The translations under genes were made by a program, and so were the position numbers. This document shows, in pieces, positions 3,274-4,179 of a stretch of 21,073 bases of DNA. Position 1 is the stretch's first letter, and every line of letters starts with the position of its first letter. The notes under the pieces are model-generated. The model did not search any database. It was not told where the DNA came from and was given only the letters and a program-made list of their open reading frames with translations. The DNA is from Candidatus Nanoarchaeia archaeon (GTDB taxonomy: Archaea > Nanobdellota > Nanobdellia > SCGC-AAA011-G17 > GW2011-AR18), in contig JBAZPJ010000006.1 in NCBI GenBank assembly GCA_041648255.1, forward strand, positions 1 to 21,073, in the 5' to 3' direction.

Positions 3274-3345
3274 TTAAACGTTTTTCATGCGTCACTAACG
3301 ACAACTGCTCGATCAGCTTATAAATCCAAAAAATATACCTTCATT
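3274..3345 (+). promoter_or_regulatory. conserved promoter module, copy A (upstream of the Bro-N gene)
   Basis: The 75 nt ending at the ATG align without gaps to 5220-5294. About 33 of the first 38 positions are identical, including CATGCG-W-CACTAACGACAAC. A small hairpin (GCTcgatcAGC) follows, then a TATA-like GCTTATAAAT about 26 nt upstream of the ATG, implying a leaderless transcript. Confidence 0.6.
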
Positions 3346-4179
3346 ATGACTGATCAAACGAACACCCTCGCAGCTTTCCAAGGGAAAAACATTCGAAAAA
3401 CATGGCACAACAATGAATGGTGGTTCTCAGTAGTAGATGTTATTGAAGCATTAACAGACAGTAAAGATCCAACTGACTATTGGTACAGACTCAAAAAAAG
3501 AGAATTAGAGTCTTCAGAAATTGAACTATCGACATTTTGTCGACAGTTGAAATTACTCTCCCCTAATAACAAGAGCTATGAAGTAGACTGTGCAAATACC
3601 GAAGGCCTTTTTAGGATCATTCAGTCCATCCCCTCTCCAAAAGCAGAACCATTCAAACTCTGGCTCGCAAAAACAGGCTATCAACGCGTCCAAGAGATCG
3701 CAGACCCAGAATTAACCCAACAAAGAATGAAAGAACTCTATCGCACAAAAGGCTACTCAGACCAATGGATAGAAAAAAGAGTTAGAGGCATCGCAATCAG
3801 AGATGAATTAACAGACGAATGGAAACAGAGAGGTGTAACTGAAGAAAAAAACTTTGCCATCCTTACCGCAGAAATTTCCAAAGCTACATTCGACATGACT
3901 CCAGCAGAATATAAAGAGTTAAAGGGATTAAAGCAAGAAAACTTACGCGACCACATGAATGAACTAGAATTAATCTTTGGCATGCTTGGAGAAAAGGTTT
4001 CTACAGAAATTACTAAGACTGAAGACGCACAAGGCTATCCTGAATTAGAAGATGCAGCACAACGAGGCGGAAAGGTAGCAGGCAACGCACGAAAAGAAAC
4101 TGAAAAAGAATTAGGCCGTTCAATTACTTCAAAAAACAATTACTTAGCTGAACCTGAAAAGAAAAAAAGATTAAAATAA
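3346..4179 (+). CDS. Bro-N domain protein (BRO / phage-antirepressor, DinD-like family)
   Basis: The N-terminus FQGKNIRKTWHNNEWWFSVVDVIEALTDS matches the Bro-N signature (F..x..IR....WF.a.DV..aL). The C-terminal part (AEPFKLWLAKTGYQRVQEIADPE...IRDELTDEWKQRG) resembles the widespread DinD-like extension. Confidence 0.8.
   Translation: MTDQTNTLAAFQGKNIRKTWHNNEWWFSVVDVIEALTDSKDPTDYWYRLKKRELESSEIELSTFCRQLKLLSPNNKSYEVDCANTEGLFRIIQSIPSPKAEPFKLWLAKTGYQRVQEIADPELTQQRMKELYRTKGYSDQWIEKRVRGIAIRDELTDEWKQRGVTEEKNFAILTAEISKATFDMTPAEYKELKGLKQENLRDHMNELELIFGMLGEKVSTEITKTEDAQGYPELEDAAQRGGKVAGNARKETEKELGRSITSKNNYLAEPEKKKRLK

Follow-up and report, generated by a model that had tools for sequence, protein, structure and literature searches.

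A tandem site at a fixed distance from the TATA box as a predicted promoter signature of Bro-N, LAGLIDADG and other mobilome- and defence-type genes in Woesearchaeota/Nanoarchaeota-type archaea

Why should two unrelated genes of the selfish type be preceded by such similar DNA? The question is raised by a 21,073-nt stretch of a Candidatus Nanoarchaeia archaeon genome (GenBank assembly GCA_041648255.1, contig JBAZPJ010000006.1, positions 1 to 21,073; hereafter the window), in which a Bro-N domain gene and a free-standing LAGLIDADG homing-endonuclease-like gene share an upstream module ending at their start codons. A preliminary description of the window proposed either a transcription-factor operator plus promoter, or the conserved 5′-end of a family of promoter-carrying single-gene cassettes. 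We consider it probable that the module contains a tandem transcription-factor site fixed upstream of the transcription factor B recognition element (BRE) and the TATA box, that such sites define a mobilome- and defence-type regulon, and that some copying and pasting of whole promoters has taken place as well.

The similarity of the two upstream regions is far above the level seen among other genes of the window. Positions 3274–3348 and 5220–5294 align without gaps at 55 of 75 positions (73%, where roughly 70% had been described), with 33 matches in the first 38 positions and 22 in the remaining 37. Among 14 ATG-anchored 75-nt upstream regions of the window, the mean number of pairwise matches was 25.7 of 75 (sd 4.9), and the next-best pair reached 37. 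In a repeat search of the window, 3273–3336 and 5219–5282 formed a 64-nt direct repeat with 80% identity, the longest two-copy family. The 20-nt core CATGCGWCACTAACGACAAC lies at 3286–3305 and 5232–5251 and nowhere else in the window with up to 3 mismatches allowed; its expectation by chance is 0 (no match in 100 shuffles). Both copies do have a TATA-like box at the same distance from the ATG, but this feature is generic for the genome: such a box is found 25–30 nt upstream of the ATG in almost every window gene that owns an intergenic region. What sets the two promoters apart is solely the 33-nt block that precedes the spacer. In both copies the core of this block ends 13 nt before the TATA-like box (Table 1).

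A search for further copies, as had been suggested, revealed four in other metagenome contigs, three of them before different genes. The exact 20-mer had no match in 185,579 species genomes (one per species) and none in viral contigs, which indicates that the window-type variant is narrowly distributed. Metagenome contigs yielded 7 matches, 4 of which are true copies (L001, L005, L006 and L007); the other three, L002–L004, are due to chance, all being the same coding sequence of an unrelated organism. A profile of the 35-nt block found no additional copies in 80 Bro-N loci from species genomes. The L007 copy is followed by a Bro-N ortholog with 78% amino acid identity to the window protein, and the L006 copy by a LAGLIDADG gene without BLASTP similarity to either window LAGLIDADG. 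Behind the L001 copy are two overlapping open reading frames (ORFs) of 37 and 33 aa, just past an Orc1/Cdc6 gene; in this region (L001:9483–9713) the block lies 35 nt after the Orc1/Cdc6 gene, and a Shine-Dalgarno-like GGAGGTGG comes before the two small ORFs. The L005 copy (L005:1320–1476) is an orphan without a downstream ORF, facing the 3′-end of a convergent tRNA-Met gene at a distance of about 48 nt.

All six copies have (G)ATTAAA-N2-TTT-N2-CATGCG-W-CACTAACGACAAC in common. The edges of conservation are sharp in every one of them: it starts abruptly at ATTAAA and stops at GACAAC, giving a block of 33–35 nt that is followed by 13 variable nucleotides and a TATA-like box, degenerate in the L005 orphan. 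A co-directional gene ends 20–80 nt upstream of the block in four of the six copies. The window and L007 blocks are about 90% identical, while their flanks are unrelated and the Bro-N proteins are only 78% identical, arguing that the block is under selection. Copy B hardly differs from the L001 copy across ~48 nt, GATTAAA through the TATA box, and the two have unrelated genes downstream, which suggests promoter copy-and-paste. The compensatory hairpin described for the two window copies is not conserved over the set. Its stems (GCT..AGC and GCG..CGC) exist, but the L006 and L007 copies are unable to form such a stem. Fold z-scores against shuffled versions of the six copies are −0.3, −0.8, +0.8, −0.2, −2.0 and −1.6, which shows no consistent gain over the shuffles, the predicted structures differ, no secondary structure with compensatory changes was consistent over the six copies, and there was no Rfam match in the window.

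Orthologs of the window genes in related archaea point to a much wider cis-element. Most archaeal Bro-N orthologs, in dozens of species, carry a (C)CACTGGACA-type site directly upstream of the TATA box. This canonical site is often doubled (CACTGGA-CACTGGACA, CCACTCCCG-CACTGGACA, CCACTGGACA-CACTGGACA) and a semi-conserved CGCG(T/C)RRAG comes after it, in the place of the BRE. Exact CACTGGACA was found 49 times in ~1.07 Mb, whereas 30 shuffled 9-mers of matching composition averaged 4.0. A TATA-like box lies 12–15 nt downstream in 27 of the 49 occurrences and exactly 13 nt downstream in 21; the TATA pattern used was permissive, and the controls were clean (0/120). Loci were gathered mostly via Bro-N genes, the LAGLIDADG and KilA-N samples being drawn independently.

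We also looked at which genes stand behind such promoters. We counted over 72 AT-rich loci with 1173 ORFs of 80 aa or more, and 27 of these ORFs have both the motif and a TATA box: 18 Bro-N, 3 LAGLIDADG, 3 KilA-N, 1 RadC, 1 Dam and 1 winged helix-turn-helix (wHTH)-nucleotidyltransferase gene. None of the 27 is a housekeeping gene. Loci of the rarer classes are given in Table 1. A 49%-identical homolog of the 314-aa window LAGLIDADG protein (L097/L098) has the promoter tttttgtCACTGGACAagtgcgcgcgagaTATATAAA, with the canonical CACTGGACA-N13-TATATAAA, and another LAGLIDADG gene (L123–L125) has CACTGGACA-N13-TATTTAAA; motif-bearing LAGLIDADG genes belong to at least 3 unrelated subfamilies. In the independent KilA-N sample, the motif was present in two of three lineages, and the third has it before a neighbouring LAGLIDADG gene. 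Thus, the comparison gives the operator-plus-promoter proposal good support: the block has four extra copies, and in orthologs of both window genes a related motif likewise stands 13 nt from the TATA box. The genome being archaeal, ‘operator’ is to be read here as a site upstream of BRE/TATA.

Bacterial homologs of the window Bro-N protein, although 60–70% identical to it, lack the motif upstream, which suggests that the element belongs to the regulatory system of the archaeal host and not to the gene. In viral contigs the canonical motif plus TATA box gave 17 matches, mostly due to chance; only those at L105 and L108 seem genuine.

How does the window block relate to the canonical site? One may divide it into two 9-nt units, CATGCGWCA followed by CTAACGACA, which gives the layout of the GGACA-CACT-GGACA type. 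The only variable base of the block (W, A or T, at 3292 in copy A) is the position that also varies in CACTGG(A/T)CA. When the 21-kb window was compared with a profile of 33 canonical promoters from which the window lineage was left out, the top rank went to copy B (5246–5271; E 0.021) and the third rank to copy A (E 1.4). The register was correct in both cases, and the match is a weak one. The suggestion that the window variant CACTAACGACA is a lineage-specific form of CACTGGACA therefore leans mainly on position and gene orthology, with partial similarity of sequence, and we make it only tentatively.

Protein binding, the direction of regulation, leaderless starts and a role of the 5′-arm in termination are all inferred from sequence in what follows. 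Each copy would be a complete archaeal promoter, made up of an A/T-rich arm (ATTAAA-N2-TTTT), two 9-bp tandem units, a 13-bp spacer that covers the BRE, and a TATA box, with a predicted leaderless ATG about 22 nt after the box. The tandem units may be the local form of a cis-element widespread in Woesearchaeota/Nanoarchaeota-type archaea, canonically (C)CACTGG(A/T)CA, often doubled and always ~13 bp upstream of the TATA box. A putative sequence-specific DNA-binding protein would bind here, one helical turn from the BRE on its upstream side, and might touch TATA-binding protein (TBP) or transcription factor B (TFB) and so control initiation, a contact suggested by the invariant 13-bp spacing. 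Because the site is positioned upstream of the core promoter, the predicted factor is more likely to be an activator, or an activation/repression switch, than a simple steric repressor. The A/T-rich arm, which contains a run of T, may serve as an oligo-T terminator or insulator against read-through from upstream genes. Within one lineage, whole promoters seem to have been copied from gene to gene; L060 and L061 have two promoters each, and each pair shares long identical stretches.

Several observations weigh against this reading. There is no gene that the L005 orphan could regulate. With about 20 of its 33 positions invariant, the block is long for the site of a single factor, and the ~48-nt near-identity between copy B and L001 is more suggestive of copied descent than of selection on the site alone. 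The profile match of CACTAACGACA with CACTGGACA is weak at both copies. In a crude TATA-anchored test, the within- versus between-genome similarity of promoter flanks did not differ significantly, so that factor-site co-evolution gains no support from co-variation of the flanks. Finally, apparent functional coherence of the gene set is inflated, since the loci, possibly mobile or defence islands, were mostly collected via Bro-N genes, and the LAGLIDADG and KilA-N samples correct for this only partly.

Table 1. Features of the two promoter copies and their genes in the window, and loci of the rarer gene classes with canonical motif and TATA box
Feature	Position or loci	Strand	Basis or remark
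Module copy A, 33 nt, ATTAAACGTTTTT CATGCGTCA CTAACGACA AC, upstream of Bro-N gene	3273–3305	+	Direct repeat, 20-mer core, four outside copies
A/T-rich 5′-arm of copy A, ATTAAA-N2-TTTTT	3273–3285	+	ATTAAA and TTT invariant in 6/6 copies
Putative unit 1 of tandem site, CATGCGTCA	3286–3294	+	Layout as upstream unit of canonical tandems, e.g. CACTGGACA-CACTGGACA in L061
Putative unit 2 of tandem site, CTAACGACA	3295–3303	+	Takes place of canonical CACTGGACA; ends exactly 13 nt before TATA box
13-nt spacer including BRE position, ACTGCTCGATCAG	3304–3316	+	Varies among copies; aligns with semi-conserved CGCGTAAAG of canonical promoters
TATA-like box CTTATAAA	3317–3324	+	Centre ~26 nt upstream of ATG at 3346
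Bro-N domain gene, 277 aa, distant C-terminal DinD match	3346–4179	+	Pfam Bro-N, E 1.3e-13
11-nt direct repeat AAATGGGGCGA	5209–5219; second copy 6211–6221, inside 3′-end of LAGLIDADG ORF	+	Probably chance
Module copy B, 33 nt, ATTAAAAGTTTTA CATGCGACA CTAACGACA AC, upstream of LAGLIDADG gene	5219–5251	+	Direct repeat, 20-mer core
Putative tandem units of copy B, CATGCGACA (5232–5240) and CTAACGACA (5241–5249)	5232–5249	+	Alignment with canonical promoters
13-nt spacer/BRE region ACCGCGCGTAACG	5250–5262	+	Fits canonical pre-TATA consensus
TATA-like box CTTTTAAA	5263–5270	+	Centre ~26 nt upstream of ATG at 5292
Free-standing LAGLIDADG homing-endonuclease-like gene, 314 aa	5292–6236	+	Pfam LAGLIDADG_3, E 6.6e-4, under gathering score
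KilA-N genes with motif and TATA box	L015, L060
RadC genes with motif and TATA box	L012, L024
D12 Dam methylase gene with motif and TATA box	L025
Eco57I-type restriction-modification gene with motif and TATA box	L077
Winged-helix or plain nucleotidyltransferase genes with motif and TATA box	L027, L060, probably L086

The strongest competitor is a mobile promoter or cassette end, where the similarity would be due to common descent only: a segment recombined in front of selfish genes, its block being a recombination or homing site, or simply a part that has not decayed, and no factor site. The near-identity of copy B and L001 includes the spacer and the TATA box despite unrelated genes, and it agrees well with this possibility, as do the promoter pairs of L060 and L061. 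The downstream genes are typical mobile or selfish ones, and the 60–89% identity of Bro-N and KilA-N proteins across archaea and bacteria implies frequent transfer. Promoter reuse before non-homologous genes has been documented in prokaryotes (PMC3575422). The 11-nt direct repeat AAATGGGGCGA brackets copy B and most of the LAGLIDADG ORF. It is present as described, but its length is about what chance allows (a rough expectation of ~0.04 for each of the six copies tested), and a flanking repeat is absent from the other five. Terminal inverted repeats, a 3′ boundary or a target duplication are missing in five of the six copies. All six stop sharply at GACAAC while the spacer and TATA box diverge, a pattern more in keeping with a selected block than with the neutral decay of recent copies. 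Moreover, the canonical motif is held 13 nt from the TATA box in dozens of species amid varying surroundings, and bacterial copies of the same genes do without it. The cassette proposal thus keeps weak support from the whole-promoter identity of copy B and L001, and lacks the 3′ boundary, terminal repeats and reproducible target duplication; overall we regard descent by mobility alone as unlikely.

A bolder version of the factor-site reading is that the promoter is a dedicated expression system for genes that cross domains. The identity of 60–89% between bacterial and Woesearchaeota Bro-N and KilA-N proteins implies recent transfer, and it is solely in the archaea that these genes have the stereotyped promoter (tandem site, 13 bp, TATA box), which homing endonucleases, RadC, methylases and toxin-type nucleotidyltransferases use as well. 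It would act as a portable adaptor placed on incoming selfish and defence genes, and one host factor would form a single switch for the DPANN mobilome, perhaps in response to damage or infection. This is a speculative proposal to which we give little weight.

It is still less probable that the block marks an alternative class of basal promoters, in which the block and the GC-rich stretch before the TATA box are read as an extended promoter by a particular TFB or TBP paralog. Such a class would account for the strictly fixed TATA distance and for CGCG(T/C)RRAG as a second semi-conserved element right at the BRE position. TFB contacts extend only ~7–9 bp upstream of the TATA box, however, and the units lie 14–31 bp upstream of it, past this reach.

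An Orc1/Cdc6-type site, with an Orc1/Cdc6 paralog as the regulator, was a further candidate. TCCAGTGG is common to the reverse complement of the element, TGTCCAGTGG, and to the euryarchaeal origin recognition box (ORB), whose consensus is GTTCCAGTGGAAAC (PMC1868953), and the mini-ORB is TTCCAGTGGAACT (PMC1904270). The L001 copy is located next to an Orc1/Cdc6 gene, and there is the precedent of Orc1-2, a promoter-binding regulator of damage-response genes in Sulfolobales (PMC6061795). Nevertheless, the invariant ORB motifs TTCC and GAA (PMC1904270) are not kept, the element having GTCC and no GAA; a putative origin by orc1/cdc6 and PolD in L121 is devoid of CACTGGACA-like repeats; and the shared core is no longer present in the window variant CACTAACGACA. 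The lead is therefore unsupported and very improbable. A solitary CRISPR-repeat-like unit or a small structured RNA is effectively refuted: although the 33-nt size and GATTAAA start are reminiscent of some archaeal CRISPR repeats, the copies are single and non-arrayed in every contig, no viral-contig match, Rfam match or conserved or significant fold was obtained, and the block always has one orientation, 13 nt upstream of the TATA box, which places it in untranscribed DNA.

Upstream activating or operator sites just upstream of BRE/TATA are known in archaea, for example the Ptr2 sites of Methanocaldococcus. Like these, the putative site described here is short and often doubled, precedes BRE/TATA by a constant distance and recurs in several promoters; it differs in sequence, in having only a putative factor, in its uncultured DPANN-type host and in serving mobilome- or defence-type genes rather than metabolic ones. 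The bacterial LexA/SOS box, which controls dinD among others, is likewise one operator over a DinD-type gene and other damage or mobile-element genes. The SOS box is, however, a palindrome over the core promoter, whereas here a direct tandem lies upstream of an archaeal promoter and the window protein is related to DinD only distantly. In T4-like phages, free-standing homing endonuclease genes carry their own promoters. These are also intergenic single-gene selfish endonucleases, each with a private promoter, but the promoter type found here serves non-endonuclease genes too, and no homing site or presence/absence polymorphism was found.

With the Orc1-2/ANTTTC regulon of Sulfolobus/Saccharolobus (PMC6061795) our case shares a conserved promoter motif over stress and DNA-transaction genes in an archaeon without LexA. 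The ANTTTC motif is unrelated in sequence, lies at −23 to −55 from the ATG and was shown experimentally, whereas the present motif lies 13 nt from the TATA box and is known from sequence only. Putative mobile promoters (Nijveen, Matus-Garcia and van Passel 2012, PMC3575422) are similar in that highly similar promoter DNA precedes non-homologous genes within and between genomes; here, by contrast, a short positioned motif is kept over species, and only copy B/L001, L060 and L061 resemble true promoter copies. By analogy, the nearest functional counterpart would be the Orc1-2/ANTTTC damage regulon or the SOS box, with differences in motif, geometry and organisms. In kind, the element is best described as a putative upstream factor site of an archaeal promoter with a promoter-reuse component.

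The surroundings of the two window copies are those of a cellular chromosome. The window (parent contig 24.6 kb; ~36% G+C) encodes a class I aminoacyl-tRNA synthetase, an eRF1/Pelota-type factor, ScpB and several glycosyltransferases, which rule out a phage or virus origin and identify it as a fragment of an archaeal chromosome. Also encoded are a DUF7343 winged-helix membrane protein and a HEPN/nucleotidyltransferase pair; no tRNA was found in the window. The closest relatives of the window Bro-N and LAGLIDADG proteins, among the matches listed, are from organisms named Woesearchaeota or Nanoarchaeota, labels that may be unreliable where they come from metagenome-assembled genomes.

The window Bro-N protein has at least 8000 homologs, the closest among the matches listed being 60–78% identical and from archaea and bacteria; the NCBIfam DinD model matches it with E 0.0017, far below the model cutoff. 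At least 8000 homologs were likewise found for the KilA-N protein of L015:781–1602. For the two proteins together, the closest relatives listed are 60–89% identical and belong to Woesearchaeota, methanogens and many bacterial phyla, and such identities across archaea and bacteria suggest frequent recent inter-domain transfer of single genes. The 314-aa LAGLIDADG protein resembles the endonuclease regions of inteins. Directly after its gene, and without the module, comes a second LAGLIDADG-like ORF (255 aa, 6462–7229) that matches the intein endonuclease regions of RtcB and V-ATPase. The 225-nt spacer between the two ORFs (6237–6461) is relatively G+C-rich and may be a gene remnant; neither of its strands gave an Rfam match or a significant fold. 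The HEPN/minimal nucleotidyltransferase pair (toxin-antitoxin type, 12452–13538, minus strand) has an ordinary TATA promoter without the module; relatives of the window nucleotidyltransferase gene in other lineages do have the motif.

The wHTH proteins encoded in the window had been named as possible binding partners. No candidate regulator emerged from the wHTH genes: the membrane proteins of this type close to the window copies and to the L007 copy are not related to each other. In three lineages (L014:8468–9899, L035:6388–7813 and L084:139–1412), Bro-N directly follows and overlaps a CARF-like (Cas_APE2256/HFX_2341_N) plus winged-helix gene, and no motif was found upstream of these wHTH genes, which are fused or adjacent to Bro-N.

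Some Bro-N loci depart from the canonical arrangement. In two Bro-N promoters (L116:4251–4330 and L037:9879–9960), an insert of ~62 nt consisting of two hairpins parts CACTGG(A/T)CA from CAAGTCC..TATA. The first stem is conserved, while the second differs in sequence with pairing kept; the insert may be a small element that has landed there or a cruciform with a regulatory function. L116 is the closest canonical-motif relative and contains an RVT_1 reverse-transcriptase gene (L116:1961–3139) two genes upstream of Bro-N. A Bro-N subfamily with the N-terminus MV(E/D)E.QKGLI (L044, L045, L049 and L057) has an AAATT(A/C)GTT(T/G)TAAGAAAGTATTTAAA block in place of CACTGGACA, which may represent a second promoter class.

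In the literature searched, gene regulation of DPANN archaea has hardly been described; no account of the motif turned up there, nor anything relevant on promoter motifs of this group. If the factor-site reading is correct, it would provide a first predicted regulon of Woesearchaeota-type archaea, with a clear signature that is easy to scan for: tandem units of the CACTGG(A/T)CA type, then 13 bp and a TATA box. Such a site would have drifted quickly in one lineage, from CACTGGACA to CACTAACGACA, with its position kept. The element would offer a concrete DNA bait for finding the regulator. It would also establish a regulatory link among free-standing homing endonucleases, Bro-N/KilA-N, RadC and restriction- or toxin-type genes, suggesting that the cell handles them as one class.

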